Positions 10,699 to 59,046 of a stretch of 64,000 nt of DNA are shown here, piece after piece (position 1 is the stretch's first letter; each line of letters opens with the position of its first letter). Origin of the DNA: Angustibacter luteus. GTDB taxonomy: Bacteria > Actinomycetota > Actinomycetes > Actinomycetales > Angustibacteraceae. Both the position numbers and the translations under genes were made by a program. The notes beneath the pieces were generated by a model. It was given only the letters and a program-made list of their open reading frames with translations, was not told the DNA's origin and made no database searches. Location: positions 124,001-188,000 of the forward strand of contig NZ_BAABFP010000004.1 of NCBI RefSeq assembly GCF_039541115.1, given 5' to 3'.

Positions 10699-11187
10699 GT
10701 GTCCGACCTCAGGCCCGCCGCCGCGGAGCTCGGCAACCAGGTCGTCCGGCTCACCCGGCAGATCGGCGTCCTGCGCGCGCACGCGACGTCCAAGCAGCGC
10801 CACGGCGTCGAGTCGTCCTCGTTCGTGCTGCTCTTCCACCTGGTCAAGCACGGTGAGCCGATGCGCTCCAGCTCGCTGGCCGACGTGGTGTGCGCCGACC
10901 CGTCCACGATCAGCCGGCAGACGGCGTCCCTGGTCGACGCGGGGCTCGTCGAGCGCCGTCCGGACCCGGACGACGGCCGCGCCGTCCAGCTCGTGGCCAC
11001 CGAGAAGGGCCACGCGCTGTTCTCCGAGATGCGGGACGAGCGCGACGACCTCATCACGAGCGTCCTCGTGGACTGGCAGGCCGACGACGTCCGCCAGCTC
11101 GCCGCCCTGCTCGACCGCTTCAGCACCGACCTCGAACGTCACCGCCCGCGCATCATGAACAAACTCGATACCCAGGAGACCGCATGA
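10699..11187 (+). CDS. MarR-family transcriptional regulator
   Basis: LADVVCADPSTISRQTASLVDAGLVERRPDPDDGRA winged HTH. Confidence 0.92.
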   Translation: MSDLRPAAAELGNQVVRLTRQIGVLRAHATSKQRHGVESSSFVLLFHLVKHGEPMRSSSLADVVCADPSTISRQTASLVDAGLVERRPDPDDGRAVQLVATEKGHALFSEMRDERDDLITSVLVDWQADDVRQLAALLDRFSTDLERHRPRIMNKLDTQETA

Positions 11188-12863
11188 CCACCGACGCCAC
11201 GGCGTCCATCGAGTCCATCGATGACGGAGGCCTCACCCACCGCCAGATCCTGACGATCCTCGTCGGCCTGATGATGGGCATGTTCCTCGCCGCCCTCGAC
11301 CAGACCATCGTCGCCACCGCGATCCGCACGATCGCCGACGACCTGCACGGGCTGTCCGTCCAGGCCTGGGTGACCACCGCGTACCTGATCACCTCGACGA
11401 TCACGACGCCGCTGTACGGCAAGCTCTCCGACATCTACGGGCGCAAGCCGCTGTTCATCACGGCGATCTCAGTCTTCGTCGTCGGGTCGCTCGCCTGCTC
11501 GTTCGCCACCTCGATGTACCAGCTCGCCGGGTTCCGCGCGCTGCAGGGCATCGGCGCCGGCGGTCTGTTCTCGATGGCGCTGGCGATCATCGGCGACATC
11601 GTGCCGCCGCGTGAGCGCGCCAAGTACCAGGGGTACTTCCTGGCCGTCTTCGGCACCTCGAGCGTCCTCGGCCCGGTCGTCGGCGGCTTCTTCGCCGGGC
11701 AGGCGACCATCCTCGGCATCACCGGGTGGCGCTGGGTCTTCCTCGTCAACGTGCCGATCGGCATCCTGGCGCTGTTCGTCGTCAACCACACCCTGAACAT
11801 CGCGCACCACCCGCACCCGCACCGCATCGACTGGAAGGGCGCCGTCGCGCTCACCGTGGGCCTCGTCCCGCTGCTGACCGTCGCCGAGCAGGGCCGCGAG
11901 TGGGGCTGGGACTCGGGCTGGGCGATCACCTGCTACGTCATCGGCCTGATCGGCGTCGCCGCGTTCTTCCTCGCCGAGCGGTCGATGGGCGACGAGGCGC
12001 TGATCCCGCTGCGGCTGTTCAAGGACCGCACCGTCTCGATCAGCACCGTCGCCAACGTCGTGCTGGGCATGGGCCTGTTCGGTGGCGTCTCGGTGCTGCC
12101 GCTCTACCTGCAGATCGTCAAGGGCTCGTCGCCGACCGAGGCCGGCCTGCAGCTCCTGCCGCTGACACTGGGCATCATGTCCGGCTCGATCGTCTCCGGC
12201 CAGATCATCTCCCGCACGGGCAAGTACCGGGTGTTCCCGATCATCGGCGCCTCGCTGATGCTCGTCGGCCTGCTGCTGTTCGCGCAGGTCGGGGCGGACA
12301 CCCCGATCTGGCAGACCATGATCGTCATGCTCATCTTCGGCCTGGGCCTCGGTAACTGCCTGCAGCCGCTGGTGCTGGCGATCCAGAACGCTGTCTCGCC
12401 GCGCGACATCGGCGTCGGCACGGCGTCCGCGACGTTCTTCCGGCAGATCGGTGGCACGCTCGGCGTCGCCATCTTCCTGTCGATCCTGTTCAGCAGCCTG
12501 CCGAAGAACATCGCGTCGTCGTTCGCGGCGGCCAAGAACAGCCCGGACTTCATCGCGGCCCTCACGGACCCGAAGAACGCCGAGTTCGCCAAGCAGCTCA
12601 AGTCCGGCGCCGTGGGTGGCTCCAGCTCGACGCTGAACGACTCGTCGTTCCTGAACGGCCTGGACTCGCGCCTCGCGCACCCGTTCCTGGTCGGGTTCTC
12701 GGACTCGATGCAGCTCGTGTTCCTGAGCGCCGCCGTCGTGGTGGCGATCGGCCTGGTCGTGGTCTGCTTCCTGCCGGCCAACGAGCTGCGGACCCAGTCG
12801 GGTCTGCAGGCCGCCCAGTCCGAGCGGGACGCGGCCGCCCTCGAGGCCGGCCCCGCGCTCTAA
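11184..12863 (+). CDS. MFS DHA2 (EmrB/QacA-type) efflux transporter
   Basis: LAALDQTIV, GKLSDIYGRK, RALQGIGAGG, WRWVFLVNVPIG; ATGA coupling to marR; AGGAG RBS. Confidence 0.92.
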   Translation: MTTDATASIESIDDGGLTHRQILTILVGLMMGMFLAALDQTIVATAIRTIADDLHGLSVQAWVTTAYLITSTITTPLYGKLSDIYGRKPLFITAISVFVVGSLACSFATSMYQLAGFRALQGIGAGGLFSMALAIIGDIVPPRERAKYQGYFLAVFGTSSVLGPVVGGFFAGQATILGITGWRWVFLVNVPIGILALFVVNHTLNIAHHPHPHRIDWKGAVALTVGLVPLLTVAEQGREWGWDSGWAITCYVIGLIGVAAFFLAERSMGDEALIPLRLFKDRTVSISTVANVVLGMGLFGGVSVLPLYLQIVKGSSPTEAGLQLLPLTLGIMSGSIVSGQIISRTGKYRVFPIIGASLMLVGLLLFAQVGADTPIWQTMIVMLIFGLGLGNCLQPLVLAIQNAVSPRDIGVGTASATFFRQIGGTLGVAIFLSILFSSLPKNIASSFAAAKNSPDFIAALTDPKNAEFAKQLKSGAVGGSSSTLNDSSFLNGLDSRLAHPFLVGFSDSMQLVFLSAAVVVAIGLVVVCFLPANELRTQSGLQAAQSERDAAALEAGPAL

Positions 12864-12885
12864 GCACCACCCGCTGGCCACGCTC

Positions 12886-12941
12886 AGATCAGAGAAGTGG
12901 GGCACCTGAGACGACTCAGGTGCCCCACTTCTCTGGTTTCG
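12886..12941. repeat. Palindromic direct repeat, copy 1 (21-bp perfect stem, ACGA loop)
   Basis: CAGAGAAGTGGGGCACCTGAG (12890-12910) / CTCAGGTGCCCCACTTCTCTG (12915-12935). Confidence 0.95.
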
Positions 12942-12997
12942 CCGCGGCCTGTGGATGGCCGACGACGCGCGGCAGGCCGTTCTGCCAGGGTCGGGCG

Positions 12998-13888
12998 ATG
13001 CCCAGCCAGAGCGAGCTCCCGACGGCCCTCATCGGTCGACCGTTCACCGTCGCGGAGGCGCTCGCTCTCGGGGCGTCGCGCGACGTCCTGCGCGGCAACC
13101 GATTTCGCACCCCGTTCCGAGGCGTCCGGATCCCCGTCGAGTTCGAGGACACCCTGACGACGCGCTGCCTAGCGGCGACGTTGGTGCTGCCGAAGGACTC
13201 TGTGTTCAGCCACGCAACGGCCGCCCGCATACATGCGCTGCCGGTGCCGGGTCACTGGCGGGACGGCCCCCTGCACGTCTCGACGGCGACCCACGGCCTT
13301 CGCCGCCAGGGCATGGAGATCCACCTCGCTAGCAACCTGCTGTCCGGCGTCGACGACGACCACGCACTTCCCATCCGAGCAGCCGCCCAGTGCTGGGCCG
13401 AGCTGGCCACCCAGCTTCCGGTGGACGAGCTCGTCGTCGTGGGGGATGCGGCCCTTCGCCGTGGTCTGGTCACACAGACCGAGCTGACGATGCTGGTGGG
13501 CAGCCTGACTGGACGTCGCGGCGTTCGACGGCTGCACCGAGCGCTGCCGCTGCTGGAGCCCGCGACCGATTCTCCGATGGAGACGAGGACCCGTCTGTTG
13601 CTCGTCCGGGCCGGCCTGCCGCGTCCGGTGGCCAACCGCGACGTCGTCGTGGACGGCGTGTGGCTGGCCCGCCCCGACCTCAGCTACCCGGACCTGAAGA
13701 TCGCCATCGAGTACGAGGGCGACCACCACCGCACCGACCGCAGGCAGTGGCTGCGCGACAAGACGAGGCGAAGACTGCTGGAGGACGCCGGGTGGATCGT
13801 CATCGAGGTCACCTCGGTCGACGTCCACCTCACACCCGCCGTCACCGTCGCCCGAGTGAGCGCTGCGATCGCCTCACGGTCGAAGTAG
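12998..13888 (+). CDS. AbiEi-like N-terminal / DUF559 (Vsr-like PD-(D/E)XK) endonuclease-domain protein
   Basis: FSHATAA; DSPMETRTRL; RPDLSY...IAIEYEGDHH...RD..R...L...GW.VI; CAGGGT-N6-ATG leaderless start. Confidence 0.85.
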   Translation: MPSQSELPTALIGRPFTVAEALALGASRDVLRGNRFRTPFRGVRIPVEFEDTLTTRCLAATLVLPKDSVFSHATAARIHALPVPGHWRDGPLHVSTATHGLRRQGMEIHLASNLLSGVDDDHALPIRAAAQCWAELATQLPVDELVVVGDAALRRGLVTQTELTMLVGSLTGRRGVRRLHRALPLLEPATDSPMETRTRLLLVRAGLPRPVANRDVVVDGVWLARPDLSYPDLKIAIEYEGDHHRTDRRQWLRDKTRRRLLEDAGWIVIEVTSVDVHLTPAVTVARVSAAIASRSK

Positions 13889-13894
13889 TCGGCG

Positions 13895-13950
13895 AGATCA
13901 GAGAAGTGGGGCACCTGAGGTGACTCAGGTGCCCCACTTCTCTGGTTTCG
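13895..13950. repeat. Palindromic direct repeat, copy 2 (21-bp perfect stem, GTGA loop)
   Basis: 54/56 identical to copy 1; only two loop bases differ; stem 13899-13919 / 13924-13944. Confidence 0.95.
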
Positions 13951-13969
13951 ACGCGGCGAGCGCGGGGGG

Positions 13970-15508
13970 CTAGGCCCAGACGAGGGCCTTCTCGGGGCGC
14001 TCGAGCACGGCCGCGACGTCCGCGATGAAGCGGCTGCCGAGGTCGCCATCCACCAACCGGTGGTCGAAGCTCAGCCCGAGCGTCGTCACCTGCCGGACGG
14101 CGAGCTTGCCCTTGTGCACCCACGGCCGCGGCGCGATCTGGCCGATGCACAGGATCGACGCCTCGCCGGGGTTCAGGATCGGCGTCCCGGTGTCCACGCC
14201 GAACACGCCGACGTTGGTGATCGACATGGTGCCGCCGGACATCTCGGCCGGCTGGGTCCGCCCGGCGCGCGCGGTCTCGGTCAGGTCGGCCAGCGCATCT
14301 GCGAGCTCACGCAGCGAGAGCAGGTGCGCGTCCTTGATGTTCGGCACCACCAGCCCCCGAGGAGTGGCCGCCGCGATGCCCAGGTTCACGTAGTGCTTGA
14401 CCACGATCTCCTGATTCGCCTCGTCCCAGGCGGCGTTGATCTGCGGGTTGCGCTTCGCCGCGATGAGCATCGCCTTCGCCACGATGAGCAGCGGCGAGAC
14501 CTTGACGTCGCGGAACTCGCGGTCCGCCCGCAGCCGCTCGACGAGCTTCATGGTGCGGGTCGCGTCGATCGTCACGAACTCCGTGACGTGCGGCGCGGTG
14601 AACGCCGAGCCCACCATGGCCTGCGCGGTCATCTTGCGGACGCCCTTGATCGGCACCCGCGTCTCGCGCTCACCCGGTGCGGGCGACATCGCCGCGGGAG
14701 CGACGACGCCCGGCTCGGACGTCGCACCCTCGAGGTGCGCCTGCACGTCCTCGCGCGTGACGACCCCACCGGGACCGCTCGGGGTCACCGACGTCAGGTC
14801 GACGCCCATGTCCTTCGCGAGCTTGCGGACCGGCGGCTTGGCCAGCGCGCGGACGTGCGCGACGGGCTGCTCGTCGTGCCCGAGGTGACCAGGCAGGTCG
14901 GCGTGCGGCGCCCGGTGCGGCTCGACCGGGGGCAGCTCGGCCTCTTCGGCGAGCTCCTGCGACACCATCCGGCCGACCTCGAAGCCGCCGTGGCGGACGG
15001 GCTTGACGCCCTCCTCGCTGAAGGTGTCCACGTTGGCCTTGCGCGGACGGCGCTTGGCGGACGTCGTCCGAGGCCCGTAGCCGACGAGGACCGAGGTGCG
15101 CCCACCCGGGGCCGGGCCGCCGATCAGGCCGGGCTCGATGGCGCCCTCCTCGGGTGCCTCGTCGACGTCGGTCGCGCCCTCGACGGCGCCCGGGGGCTCC
15201 GGCGACCGGTGCGAACCGCCCGCGGACTCCGGCTCCGGCGTGCCGGGCCCAGCCGAACCCGTGGGGTCGACGTCCACCGAGATGATCGGCGTGCCGACGT
15301 CCACGGTGGTGCCCTCGGCGACGAGCAGCTCGGCGACGACTCCCGCGAACGGGGTCGGCAGCTCGACCAGCGACTTCGCGGTCTCGATCTCGACCACGAT
15401 GTCGTTGGTGCGCACGGTGTCGCCTGGCTTGACCTTCCAGGTGACGATCTCGGCCTCGGTCAGACCCTCTCCGACGTCGGGCAGGCGGAACTGCTTCAGA
15501 TCAGGCAC
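13970..15508 (-). CDS. 2-oxoacid dehydrogenase E2 (dihydrolipoamide acyltransferase)
   Basis: Lipoyl domain LPDVGEGL..ETAKS, E3-binding AKPPVRKLAKD, catalytic FDHRLVDG. Confidence 0.95.
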   Translation of the reverse strand: MPDLKQFRLPDVGEGLTEAEIVTWKVKPGDTVRTNDIVVEIETAKSLVELPTPFAGVVAELLVAEGTTVDVGTPIISVDVDPTGSAGPGTPEPESAGGSHRSPEPPGAVEGATDVDEAPEEGAIEPGLIGGPAPGGRTSVLVGYGPRTTSAKRRPRKANVDTFSEEGVKPVRHGGFEVGRMVSQELAEEAELPPVEPHRAPHADLPGHLGHDEQPVAHVRALAKPPVRKLAKDMGVDLTSVTPSGPGGVVTREDVQAHLEGATSEPGVVAPAAMSPAPGERETRVPIKGVRKMTAQAMVGSAFTAPHVTEFVTIDATRTMKLVERLRADREFRDVKVSPLLIVAKAMLIAAKRNPQINAAWDEANQEIVVKHYVNLGIAAATPRGLVVPNIKDAHLLSLRELADALADLTETARAGRTQPAEMSGGTMSITNVGVFGVDTGTPILNPGEASILCIGQIAPRPWVHKGKLAVRQVTTLGLSFDHRLVDGDLGSRFIADVAAVLERPEKALVWA

Positions 15509-38101: not shown

Positions 38102-38197
38102 CCGGCCGCCACCGCCAACCGCAGATGTCCCGCTATCCGGGGTCAAGAGCGACCCTTCACCCCGGATGTTGGAACATCTGGGCGAAGGGGCGGCCGG
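38102..38197. repeat. Long imperfect palindrome between convergent genes (bidirectional terminator or REP-like)
   Basis: Nested arms CCGGCCGCC/GGCGGCCGG, CAGATGT/ACATCTG, ATCCGGGGT/ACCCCGGAT. Confidence 0.7.
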
Positions 38198-49714: not shown

Positions 49715-49823
49715 CTGCCCATCATCCACGCCGGCGAGGTCGTCGTGGCAACGGCGTCCGCTCTGGCGCACGCGGTTGCCACGATCCCGTGACGGCGCGA
49801 CCGGGGTGGGCCAAACTGGCGGG

Positions 49824-53912: not shown

Positions 53913-55419
53913 CGAACTCGTCCGGTCGTGCCACCAGCGCGGTCAGGGTGTCGGCGTTCAGCGAGTCGGACGGCACGACGTCCACGACGCGTCCGTCCAT
54001 CAGGATCGCGACGCGGTGCCCGACGCGCAGCACCTCCTCCAGCTCGGCGGAGATGAACATGACGGAGAGCCCGTTGCCCGCGAGCTCGCCCACCAGGTTC
54101 TGCACCTCGACCTTGGCGCCGATGTCGATCCCGCGGGTCGGCTCGTCCAGCACCAGGACGCGCGGCGACAGCGCCAGCAGCCGGGCGAGGAGGACCTTCT
54201 GCTGGTTGCCGCCGGACAACGTGCCGGCGGGGCGGTCCGGGTCCGCGGGACGGATGTCCAGCGCGTCGATCCAGCTGAGCGCGAGCTCGCGCTGCCGGGA
54301 CGACCGGATCCGGCGCAGCATCCCGCGCTCGGCCTGCAGCGCGAGCGTGATGTTCTCCATGACGCTCAGCTCGCTGATGATGCCCTCGGCCCGCCGGTTC
54401 TCCGAGGAGTACACGACGCCGAGGGACATCGCCGACCGTGGTCCACCGAAGCTCTCCGCCTGACCCTGGATGTGGATGATCCCCCCATCCAGCTTGTCGA
54501 TCCCCGTGATCGCGCGGGCGAGCTCGGTGCGACCGGAGCCGAGGAGCCCGGCCACCCCGAGCACCTCGCCCTCCATGAGGTCGACGTCCGCGCCGCTGAT
54601 GCCGGCGCCGACGCTCACCCCGCGGGCGCTCAGGAACGGACGCCGGTCGTCCTCGACCACGTGCAGCCGCGGTTTGGCCCGCAGCGACTCCGCGCTGCGG
54701 CCGAGCATCGCCTGCACCAGGTCGATGCGCAGCAGCTCCTTGGTCAGGAACTCGCCCACCAGCTTGCCGTCGCGCAGGACGGTCACCCGGTCGCTGATCT
54801 CGTAGACCTGGTCGAGGAAGTGCGAGACGAACAGGATCGCCACGCCGCGCTGCTTGAGGTCACGGATCACCCGGAAGAGCTCCGCGCACTCGTCCAGGTC
54901 CAGGCTCGACGTCGGCTCGTCGAGCACCAGTACCCGGACGTCGGTCGAGATGGCGCGGGCGATGGCGACCAGCTGCTGCACCGCCAACGAGTGCCGGCCC
55001 AGCAGCGAGGCGGGATCGATGTCCAGGCCGAGGTCGCTCAGCACCTCCTGCGCCCGCCGCCGCATCTGCGCCCAGTCGATCATGGCGAACCGCCGCGGCT
55101 CGCGGCCGAGCGCGATGTTCTCCGCCACCGAGACGTTGGGCAGCAGGTCGATCTCCTGGTAGACCGAGCTGACCCCGGCCCGCTGCGCGTCGTGCGGCGT
55201 CCCGAAGGTCACGACCCCGTCACCGAGCCGCAGGACCCCGGCGGACAGCGGGAGCGCACCGGTGATCGCCTTGATCAGCGTCGACTTGCCGGCACCGTTC
55301 TCGCCCATGAGCGAGTGCACCTCACCGGGGAACATCCGGAAGTCGACCCCGTCGAGCGCCGCATCCACCCCGAAGTAGACGGTGGCTCCGGTGAGCTCCA
55401 GGAGGGGCCGCGCGTCCAT
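53905..55419 (-). CDS. Sugar ABC transporter ATP-binding protein (second YtfR-like copy)
   Basis: GENGAGKST, LDEPTSSL, LSGGNQQK, DEPTRGID; own CATAAT-N6-ATG. Confidence 0.92.
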   Translation of the reverse strand: MDARPLLELTGATVYFGVDAALDGVDFRMFPGEVHSLMGENGAGKSTLIKAITGALPLSAGVLRLGDGVVTFGTPHDAQRAGVSSVYQEIDLLPNVSVAENIALGREPRRFAMIDWAQMRRRAQEVLSDLGLDIDPASLLGRHSLAVQQLVAIARAISTDVRVLVLDEPTSSLDLDECAELFRVIRDLKQRGVAILFVSHFLDQVYEISDRVTVLRDGKLVGEFLTKELLRIDLVQAMLGRSAESLRAKPRLHVVEDDRRPFLSARGVSVGAGISGADVDLMEGEVLGVAGLLGSGRTELARAITGIDKLDGGIIHIQGQAESFGGPRSAMSLGVVYSSENRRAEGIISELSVMENITLALQAERGMLRRIRSSRQRELALSWIDALDIRPADPDRPAGTLSGGNQQKVLLARLLALSPRVLVLDEPTRGIDIGAKVEVQNLVGELAGNGLSVMFISAELEEVLRVGHRVAILMDGRVVDVVPSDSLNADTLTALVARPDEFDE

Positions 55420-57514: not shown

Positions 57515-59046
57515 GCCAGGCTCCCTTGGCTGTCGTTCGCCATCAGGTCGATGAGTCCGTCGAGGTCGATGGAGTGCGAGTCGCGCATCCCGATCTGGCG
57601 CCGGTCTCGCATCACCACGATGCGCTGGGCCAATCGAAGCACCTCCTCGAGCTCGGAGGAGATGAAGATGACGGCGAGCCCTTGCTCGGCGAGCTCGGCG
57701 ACCTTGCGCTGGATGTCGGCCTTGGCGCCGACGTCGACGCCGCGGGTGGGTTCGTCGAGGATGAGCAGCCGGGGCGCGGTCGCGAGCCACCGCGCGAGGA
57801 CGACCTTCTGCTGGTTGCCGCCCGAGAGGTTGCCGGCGAGCATCGCCGGGTCGGCGGGTCGCACACCGAGCGAGGTCATGAGCTCGGAGACGACGGCGTC
57901 CTGCTCGCTGCGCCGGACGCGCCGCAGCCAGCCACGACGTGCCTGCAGGCCGAGCACGATGTTCTCCGCGACCGTGAGGTCCGCGACGATGCCCTCGGCG
58001 CGCCGGTCCTCGGACGAGAACGCGATGCGGTGCTCCATCGCCACCCGCGGCGAGGACAGCTTCACGGGGTCGCCGTTCAGCTCGACCACCCCCTGGTCGG
58101 CCCGGTCCGCGCCGCACAGCAGCCGGACCAGCTCGGTGCGCCCCGAACCCAGCAACCCGGCGATCCCGACGACCTCGCCCTCGTAGACGTCGAGGTCTGC
58201 CTCGCCGAGCACCCCCCGACGGGCGATGCCCGTCGCGCGCAGGACCGGTGCACCGCCGCGGTCGATGACGCGCTCGGCGGTGGCGGAGATGGCCTCGAGC
58301 TCGGCGATCTCACGACCCACCATCTGGGTCACGAGCTGGCCGCGGGGCAGGTCCTGCAGGCGGTGCTCGCCCACGAGCTGACCGTTGCGCAGCACGGTGA
58401 TGCGGTCGGCGATCTCGTACACCTGGTCCAGGAAGTGGCTGACGAACAGGATCGCCACGCCCCTGTCCCGCAGGTCCCGGACCACCGCGAAGAGGCGCTC
58501 GACCTCGTCCCGGTCCAGGCTGGACGTCGGCTCGTCGAGGATCAGGACGCGGGCATCGAGGACCATGGCCCGGCTGATCGCGACGAGCTGCTGGACAGCG
58601 ATGGAGTGGCTCGACAGCAAGAGGTGGGTGTCGAGCTCCAGGCCGAGGCTGGCGAGGTGGCGGGCCGCCTCGTCATGGAGGCGGCGCCAGCTGATGCGCC
58701 GGGCACTTCGCGGCTCGTGCCCCAGCATGACGTTCTCGCCGATGGACAGGTTCGGGCAGAGGTTGACCTCTTGGTAGACCGTGGAGATGCCCGCGGCCTG
58801 CGCGTCCCCGGTGCTGCCGAAGACCCTCGGCTCACCGGCGATCGTGATGGTGCCGGCGTCGATCGGGTACACGCCCGTCAACGCCTTGATCAGGGTGGAC
58901 TTGCCGGCACCGTTCTCGCCCATGAGGGCGTGCACCTCGCCGGGTCTGAGGGTGAAGTCGACGCCGTCGAGCGCCAGGACCCCCGGGAAGCGGATCGTGA
59001 TGCCCCGCATCGCCACCACGGGCGCGGTCTCGCTGAGCACGGACAT
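57511..59046 (-). CDS. Sugar ABC transporter ATP-binding protein (YtfR-like)
   Basis: FPGV.AL, GENGAGKST, LDEPT, LSGGNQQK; GAGAGGA RBS. Confidence 0.93.
   Translation of the reverse strand: MSVLSETAPVVAMRGITIRFPGVLALDGVDFTLRPGEVHALMGENGAGKSTLIKALTGVYPIDAGTITIAGEPRVFGSTGDAQAAGISTVYQEVNLCPNLSIGENVMLGHEPRSARRISWRRLHDEAARHLASLGLELDTHLLLSSHSIAVQQLVAISRAMVLDARVLILDEPTSSLDRDEVERLFAVVRDLRDRGVAILFVSHFLDQVYEIADRITVLRNGQLVGEHRLQDLPRGQLVTQMVGREIAELEAISATAERVIDRGGAPVLRATGIARRGVLGEADLDVYEGEVVGIAGLLGSGRTELVRLLCGADRADQGVVELNGDPVKLSSPRVAMEHRIAFSSEDRRAEGIVADLTVAENIVLGLQARRGWLRRVRRSEQDAVVSELMTSLGVRPADPAMLAGNLSGGNQQKVVLARWLATAPRLLILDEPTRGVDVGAKADIQRKVAELAEQGLAVIFISSELEEVLRLAQRIVVMRDRRQIGMRDSHSIDLDGLIDLMANDSQGSLA

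Follow-up and report, generated by a model that had tools for sequence, protein, structure and literature searches.

A predicted AbiEi–Vsr fusion nuclease bracketed by, and covarying with, a dispersed palindromic repeat family in an actinobacterium

Results

A 296-aa gene between two near-identical palindromes

The window, by which we mean the whole 64,000-nucleotide stretch analysed, belongs to a 72% GC actinobacterial genome of 4.16 Mb. It holds a 296-aa ORF, whose closest named protein is 80% identical and labelled Angustibacter, between convergent genes for an MFS transporter (PF07690) and a 2-oxoacid dehydrogenase E2 component (PF00198/PF00364), just as an earlier sequence-only reading had laid out the locus (Table 1). 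That reading also gave the flanking repeats correctly as two 56-nt units at 12886-12941 and 13895-13950 that differ only at unit positions 26-27, the first ending 56 nt before the ATG (12998) and the second beginning 6 nt past the stop codon (13888), with a perfect 21-bp stem in each. Folding z scores for the two hairpins were -8.9 and -10.8 against 200 shuffles each, none of which equalled the native sequence. An Rfam search returned no family at the gathering score, merely chance microRNA matches far lower.

Table 1 Features of the locus and listed sites of the promoter motif (window positions unless a locus is named)
Feature	Position	Strand	Description
Left neighbour, MFS transporter	11184..12863	+	PF07690; outside element
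Upstream palindrome	12881..12944	.	Family 1 subtype a; perfect 21-bp stem 12890-12935
DnaA-box-like motif CTGTGGAT	12949..12959	+	Candidate activator site; TGTGGA begins 48 nt 5' of start codon
Putative -10 element CAGGGT	12986..12991	+	Predicted; 6 nt 5' of ATG
296-aa gene	12998..13888	+	Predicted AbiEi-antitoxin fold, residues 3-187, fused to a Vsr/EDxHD-type PD-(D/E)XK nuclease domain, 190-296
Asp29 codon	13082..13084	+	Helix-turn-helix region; covaries with repeat position 11
Nuclease domain	13565..13885	+	E195, D227, E238, H244, D254
Downstream palindrome	13890..13953	.	Family 1 subtype a; perfect 21-bp stem 13899-13944
Right neighbour, 2-oxoacid dehydrogenase E2	13970..15508	-	PF00198, PF00364, PF02817; outside element
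CTGTGGAY sites, listed loci	L167:185, L169:136-164, L170:127-155, L171:126, L168:1342		

The enrichment of A/T-ending codons that had been noticed in the gene is real (40/296, against 12/559 in the MFS gene and 29/512 in the E2 gene). It is no marker of recent arrival, because all six orthologs measured have the same bias (GC3 0.83-0.89), and horizontal acquisition argued from codon usage is thereby ruled out. Elsewhere in the window, 53989-55329 and 57598-58944, lying 3.6 kb apart, are 71-83% identical and are probably paralogous ABC-transporter ATPase genes.

Predicted fold and active site

An AlphaFold2 model built with 99 homologs (pLDDT 95) predicts a protein with two distinct structural relationships. 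For residues 3-187 the match is to the AbiEi antitoxin (6y8q; Z 11.5, rmsd 5.8, 174 aligned); for residues 190-296 the matches are to I-Bth0305I (3r3p; Z 12.6, rmsd 2.4, 95 aligned), 3hrl (Z 12.0) and Vsr (1cw0; Z 11.0). The latter matches bear out the Vsr/DUF559-type PD-(D/E)XK domain proposed for the C-terminus from sequence patterns. Pfam recognised only MTES_1575/DUF559, with PF18741 below cut-off (E 3e-7), and PADLOC gave an AbiEi match (E 8e-6). E195, D227, H244 and D254 are invariant across the 99 homologs; in a 114-row alignment E195 is kept in 114 rows, D227 in 113 and H244 in 104. Their spacing fits that of D196/H213/D222 in I-Bth0305I, as far as the accessible part of PMC3239194 describes it. 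The catalytic residues are intact, and fold and active site together suggest that the domain would nick DNA.

The 296-aa protein has no HUH motif (H-hydrophobic-H), and with an AbiEi-plus-Vsr fold it is not an HUH enzyme, as had been stated. The host genome gave no Y1_Tnp or RAYT transposase match, which rules out a RAYT as the cause of the repeats. No AbiEii/MenT nucleotidyltransferase toxin gene adjoins the gene, the neighbours being MFS and E2. Bearing on a kinase-like role for the AbiEi part, the available text of PMC11375011 argues that MenA3 is without kinase motifs.

A dispersed family of intergenic palindromes

A genome-wide profile search placed the two flanking palindromes in family 1, a dispersed, REP-like set of 29 sites. 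All but one of these (28/29) lie outside predicted genes, 21 are no more than 60 nt past a stop codon, and 10 fall between convergent genes, which is an enrichment (267 of 1,319 gaps are of this kind). The repeat unit recognised earlier is real, but its length of 56 nt is not that of the family, whose consensus spans ~62-64 bp with CG-y-y-GA ends. Around a variable 14-bp centre, the full element has a GGGGCAC core that hardly varies and occupies positions 8-14 counted outwards; its outer arms form two subtypes, one of ~17 copies like the gene flanks (1a) and one of ~12 others (1b). The perfect stem of the gene-flanking copies is atypical: across the family, between 10 and 16 of the 16 arm positions are paired. 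A classical terminator was sought and not found, no U-tract being present at any of the 29 copies.

Three homogeneous families (2, 5 and 6) show no compensatory stem changes beyond consensus; the excess in family 1 stems from its two subtypes, and that in family 4 is small. Because the arms of the three homogeneous families lack compensatory change, recognition of the palindrome looks sequence-based rather than stem-loop-based, which speaks against the earlier suggestion that the protein recognises its own stem-loop as such. The absence of an obvious target duplication was upheld in five families, where we found no excess over shuffled flanks. Solo repeats of families 0, 2, 4, 5 and 6 in G000 carry C-rich 5' and G-rich 3' tails (e.g. 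C4:354272, 556457); these seem to arrive with insertion, because they are missing from the empty sites of the sister genome G003.

One reading of such a distribution is that the protein is a DNA-binding regulator or chromosome organiser, in which the upstream palindrome serves as an AbiEi-type operator, the nuclease is idle and the solo copies are binding sites after genes. The AbiEi fold, the operator-like geometry and the frequency of copies just past stop codons are in its favour. Conservation of the catalytic residues is not expected of an idle nuclease, the second copy lies 3' of the gene and so is not an operator, and the fast turnover of whole families between sister species, described below, is hard to square with regulation. 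We consider this reading very unlikely.

Paralogs and their repeat families

The host genome encodes eight full-length paralogs, and seven of them (P1-P7) are bracketed by a repeat family of their own, with 29, 28, 46, 20, 25, 33 and 7 sites, respectively. P8 has a downstream copy only, and the sub-variant to which it belongs has few solo copies. The expectation that each paralog would have its own hairpin family therefore holds for 7/8. When 276 strong hairpins were clustered de novo, 11 families with at least 3 members emerged, of which seven are owned by paralogs, two are large and without a gene (families 4 and 6, with 28 and 12 sites) and two are small. No cognate gene for families 4 and 6 or for the ~12 copies of subtype 1b was found in the host genome, and the two large ownerless families weaken a strict one-gene-one-family rule. 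The arm patterns of families 4 and 6 are at chance level in five relatives; in G004, one gene located at the P6 site is flanked by a sequence with weak likeness to family 4.

The association extends well beyond this genome. From 80 homologous loci in named genomes, 76 had usable flanks, and a repeat common to the upstream and downstream sides was present in 60 of these against 1 of 399 control ORFs; in 46 of the 60 repeat-paired loci the best match was the locus's own downstream flank. Metagenome loci gave a repeat pair in 41/67 (13/80 being too short) against 0/38 shifted windows. The frequency is lower in an even phylum-wide sample, where just 12/27 best matches had a pair (11/27 when other windows were used, with 0/26 controls). 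Hairpin lengths run from 54 to 67 bp (10th-90th percentile, 120 hairpins). Protein clades match repeat families across 53 paralogs, with one clade of three genes having no flanking pair.

Several further copies and relatives were seen. Window 38116-38185 is a solo copy of family 4, whose cognate gene was not found among the host's genes, and 49736-49793 is a solo family 2 copy of the sub-variant found after P8; the syntenic G003 site is empty in both cases. A truncated remnant of a ninth paralog lies at G000 C5:866008-866391, and its orthologs in G001-G003 have no flanking repeat pair. P7 (L175:52-1191) has a divergent nuclease motif, long inverted flanks, its 7-copy family and no Pfam match. 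A hairpin family of 9 sites with a constant loop and variable stems (e.g. G000 C7:235211, C8:292184, C5:317706) is unrelated to the paralogs.

Repeat variants track the gene between genomes

The arm variant beside each ortholog is the dominant variant of its own genome, with 23, 20, 11 and 25 matches in G000, G001, G007 and G008, respectively, and at most 3 matches in any other of five genomes. The arm pattern of cassette A in G010 has no dispersed family above chance. Family 0, which belongs to P3, behaves in the same manner: its arm has 85, 99 and 99 matches in the three genomes with a P3-clade gene, 1 in G003 (closed, the sister of G000) and 5 in G001, both of which lack such a gene, 3 in G010 and 0 in five others. 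Families 0, 4, 5 and 6 have no match in 800 kb of G003; the syntenic sites there either are short, with no repeat, or contain one that looks like the flanks of the nuclease genes of G003 itself. For family 1, whose gene is kept in both G000 and G003, 5/6 syntenic sites are common, two of them being the gene flanks; with syntenic sites taken from four relatives, 5/11 are in common. G009 and G013 have no full-length gene, and their arm matches are not above control. A degenerate core pattern applied to 15 genomes did not discriminate (G007, 7 against 10 in the control; G005, 5 against 6). The same intergenic spot can hold different repeat families in sister species (L150; G000 C4:58717, 554907, 565202).

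Residue 29 covaries with repeat position 11

Of ten orthologs, the seven with GGGGCAC arms all have Asp at residue 29, and the three with GGCCCAC arms all have Lys there. The three GGCCCAC orthologs span two lineages, and the Asp-bearing G004 protein is nested among them; a two-state column of this kind arises in just 5/120 three-way splits. An independent covariation test used 94 other loci (three training duplicates removed), grouped into 58 clusters at 55% identity. Column 29 with position 11 from the centre ranked top of 6,775 residue-base pairs (z 7.7) in a register picked from two for odd-length elements; in the alternative register it ranked fourth (z 6.0), and unrelated-looking pairs attain z 5-7 as background. 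Lys or Arg occurs with G in 17/18 clusters and Asp with C in 6/7, and clusters with other residues have mixed bases (12 with G, 11 with A, 10 with C); a Fisher test gives p 5e-5. The residue states are scattered over the tree (13 changes per 13 rows and 6 per 6). The only enriched block is the helix-turn-helix region against positions 8-14, where 4.4% of pairs exceed z 3, compared with no more than 1.4% elsewhere. Beyond the helix-turn-helix, covariation gave no consistent signal that would place the nuclease on the element. Contacts of Lys or Arg with guanine and of Asp with cytosine are commonplace in protein-DNA recognition.

The sites bound by AbiEi and Rv2827c consist of two 23-bp inverted repeats set 3 or 13 bp apart, and the C-terminal domains of these proteins are modelled at the centre of the target, according to the portion of PMC7319586 available. 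The element here has a similar layout. Because the helix here appears to read near the centre, the nuclease domain would more likely face the conserved element ends.

The pairing of paralogs with families, the genome-specific arm variants and the residue-base covariation all tie the protein to its own hairpin family, as had been conjectured. Taken with the flank counts and the missing U-tracts, they leave effectively refuted the view that these are generic terminators or chance repeats unlinked to the gene, a view that the intergenic placement of the copies and their enrichment between convergent genes would otherwise favour.

Long residence with rare rearrangement at the MFS-E2 locus

In G001-G005, G007 and G014 the gene is again flanked by MFS and E2, and in G008 and G011 it adjoins E2. 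These orthologs are 50-80% identical and have hairpins on both sides in every case. The gene tree has the same three groups as the E2 tree, and dN/dS against G003 is 0.15, indicating purifying selection; dS in the same comparison is 0.95, above the 0.26 and 0.42 of the neighbours. P1, P2, P4, P5 and P6 are syntenic across the genus or family. Vertical conservation of the gene at this site, without hairpins in relatives, had been named as adverse to the idea of an element; we found the conservation, but the orthologs keep their hairpins.

Rearrangements are nonetheless seen. In one of eight loci (G004) the gene is inverted between its palindromes. Comparison of related MFS-E2 junctions uncovered a site with a single hairpin in G006, where a metagenome locus with the same flanks (L306) reads hairpin-gene-hairpins, in line with the prediction that recombination between the repeats can leave one hairpin. 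The G010 MFS-E2 site holds a hairpin and another ORF; this genome has two copies of the gene elsewhere, one inserted between convergent stops without duplication. The P3 site also differs from that in G002 and G004. In G004 and G005 a Ser/Thr kinase gene sits between the cassette and E2 (L026:2866-4476, L027:3190-4728); past the kinase gene, away from the cassette, lies another family-1-like hairpin. Several relocated cassettes occupy spots that hold a solo repeat in G000, which are shared hot spots.

The relocations and the deletion to one hairpin are what would be expected of an autonomous selfish cassette, in which repeat, gene and repeat move as a unit and solo hairpins are footprints. The synteny of five paralogs and the congruence of the gene and E2 trees weigh against it. 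There is no near-identical copy, the closest paralogs being only 26-33% identical, and the gene family is almost absent from mobile DNA: searches of 50,697 phage and 72,556 plasmid records found it in 1 and 5, respectively (four of the five plasmid records measuring 0.75-11.9 Mb), and viral contigs had none. We regard an autonomous cassette as quite unlikely, and the earlier picture of a currently mobile or recently arrived selfish element is not supported by these data together with the low dN/dS.

A promoter motif found also at DNA-uptake genes

A CTGTGGAY motif, which we take to resemble a DnaA box, is located 45-49 nt 5' of the start, or reversed at 57-60 nt, before a weak -10 element. It is present at 43/76 homologous loci against 4/399 control ORFs, precedes P1-P7 and occurs near dnaA-dnaN. 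Upstream of the gene there is no match to a sigma-70 consensus; of 81 promoter windows, 78% have A at -11 and 78% have T at -7. The putative -10 element six nt from the ATG suggests a leaderless transcript.

The host genome has 77 non-coding CTGTGGAY sites, of which 20 regions, picked by eye, were annotated. They include the loci listed in Table 1, at comEA-comEC, yraN-comM-dprA, recA, a TadA-like ATPase and DUF4192, along with four DUF222 genes, a DEAD-box helicase, relA and unrelated genes. Near comEA the motif was found in 15 of the best 30 loci from 41 genomes of the order, compared with 3/90 coding windows, a count that uses rough start estimates and an unmatched control. None of radA, ssb, lexA, recR, ruvA and recN (0/6) carries the box, and a general repair regulon was rejected on that basis; gene patterns for comF, tadA, uvrA and dnaB matched nothing. 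A competence or DnaA regulon in Actinomycetota is possible, and we treat the link to competence as a lead, not a result. Competence control in actinobacteria is still unidentified (PMC12849477), and the Micrococcus papers examined describe no such motif. At the four DUF222 genes (L163-L166; one with HNH) the reversed box stands 57-58 nt 5' of the start, the same spacing as at repeat-bracketed nucleases.

These sites support a reading in which the protein is a host tool acting on DNA that enters by natural transformation, where its cleavage of single-stranded hairpins formed by the palindrome would tune which DNA recombines; the spread of repeats would be a side effect or have another cause. 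Vertical inheritance and purifying selection fit a benefit to the host. The lack of compensatory change in families 2, 5 and 6 counts against it, the box genes were chosen by eye, and helix-turn-helix readout usually needs duplex DNA; the reading survives the last point because a folded hairpin stem is duplex. SsnA acts in this way on NTS repeats, in the accessible part of PMC11893778. Overall we judge such a role unlikely.

Discussion

A proposed domesticated, repeat-cognate nuclease

The reading that we favour, with a probability of about 0.62, is that a domesticated nuclease binds and nicks its own palindrome and that host repair spreads and homogenises the family, making the system an analogue of RAYT and Ssn that belongs to neither class. 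In the first step, the AbiEi-type winged helix would read the conserved core of each arm by sequence, a step strongly supported by covariation. Residue 29 would contact position 11 from the centre, probably with one monomer per arm of double-stranded DNA, by analogy with AbiEi antitoxins at their operators. The fused Vsr/EDxHD domain may then nick at a fixed place within the element or at its edge, as its modelled fold suggests. Host recombination or repair of these nicks could copy the palindrome to new intergenic sites and convert old ones; nick repair that converts copies would explain why the whole family, gene flanks included, tracks the specificity of the protein. Meanwhile the gene has long resided at one locus, with occasional inversion, relocation and deletion between palindromes, as the comparison of genomes establishes. 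Expression might be low and switched on through the DnaA-box-like site common to DNA-uptake and recombination genes, a timing that the shared motif hints at. Counting against the domesticated-nuclease reading, neither a target duplication nor strand-transfer chemistry is evident.

Likenesses to RAYT-REP/REPIN systems (REPtrons) are extensive. In both, a single-copy, mostly vertical chromosomal gene has dispersed extragenic palindromes of its own on either side, one genome can hold several such repeat-specific genes, and plasmid copies are rare (PMC5581495 and PMC3733652, in the parts available). Long residence with rare events is likewise the RAYT pattern, going by the portion of PMC5581495 to hand, and not that of insertion sequences, which have a transposase, target duplication and near-identical copies, none of which was found here. 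The enzymes differ, RAYT being an HUH Y1 transposase and the protein here a predicted AbiEi-wHTH fused to Vsr/EDxHD, and so do the repeats: REP has a GTAG/CGTC tag, whereas ours are ~62-bp single palindromes without a tag and with symmetric CG-y-y-GA ends. The word Actinobacteria is missing from the main text of PMC5581495 and PMC3733652, as far as that text was accessible.

Ssn with its NTS/SRM repeats, as portrayed in the available text of PMC11893778, also pairs a nuclease gene with a cognate hairpin repeat on two sides, a repeat variant that co-varies with the homolog and perhaps a connection with natural transformation. The Ssn enzymes, found mainly in Gram-negative bacteria, consist of a single GIY-YIG domain of ~94 aa and cut single-stranded DNA at a 28-nt oriented repeat; the protein here is a three-part one of 296 aa, and its repeat is symmetric and twice as long.

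A bolder extension, possible in our view although doubtful, is that these proteins make up a third class of repeat-propagating enzymes, found across the phylum and separate in origin from both RAYT and Ssn. They would be AbiEi-Vsr nickases with a simple residue-to-base code, each with a ~62-bp palindrome family of its own, that come on together with the DNA-uptake machinery and write repeats at new sites in the course of natural transformation. Were this true, the CTGTGGAY box would also mark the competence regulon of Actinomycetota.

Significance and relation to the literature

Under the domesticated-nuclease reading, the many intergenic palindromes of ~60 bp in actinobacteria would have a cause, and a protein family that is very common but uncharacterised would have a substrate. 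We found this family in 56 of 151 sampled Actinomycetota genomes, at up to 14 copies (a tally that includes three unpublished genomes). The gene-plus-cognate-repeat design would have arisen with a third, unrelated enzyme, so that the spread of REP-like families could be tested in a new system. Each gene carries its predicted target, and a single-residue specificity switch is predicted, so that long-site nickases might be obtained from this family. The promoter motif, for its part, provides a lead to competence control in actinobacteria.

The freely accessible main texts searched held no description of a nuclease with a cognate palindrome system, no paper joining AbiEi with DUF559, and nothing on the promoter motif or residue code for this nuclease family; this points to an enzyme-plus-repeat partnership that had not been described there. 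In the part of PMC3424549 available, DUF559 is given only with Vsr and homing functions. Unexplained mycobacterial stem-loop families appear in the accessible text of PMC2267715.

The two halves of the protein each have well-studied relatives. With the type IV antitoxins AbiEi and Rv2827c (MenA4) it shares the predicted fold of residues 3-187, and AbiEi operators likewise consist of two inverted arms, 49-59 bp overall (PMC7319586, available portion). AbiE differs in that no AbiEii/MenT toxin stands alongside the gene here, which has a fused nuclease and a site that is dispersed and also 3' of the gene. With I-Bth0305I and Vsr it shares the predicted catalytic fold and D/H/D spacing (PMC3239194, in the part consulted). 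EDxHD homing endonucleases occur in an intron or intein or beside the allele that they cut, whereas this gene is free-standing between intact genes; a homing endonuclease cuts an empty allele, and the gene here has a presumed site on each side. Vsr has a methyltransferase neighbour, which this gene does not. A true Vsr-like gene adjoining a probable DNA methyltransferase is found in a low-GC stretch of G000 (C4:250107-250595).
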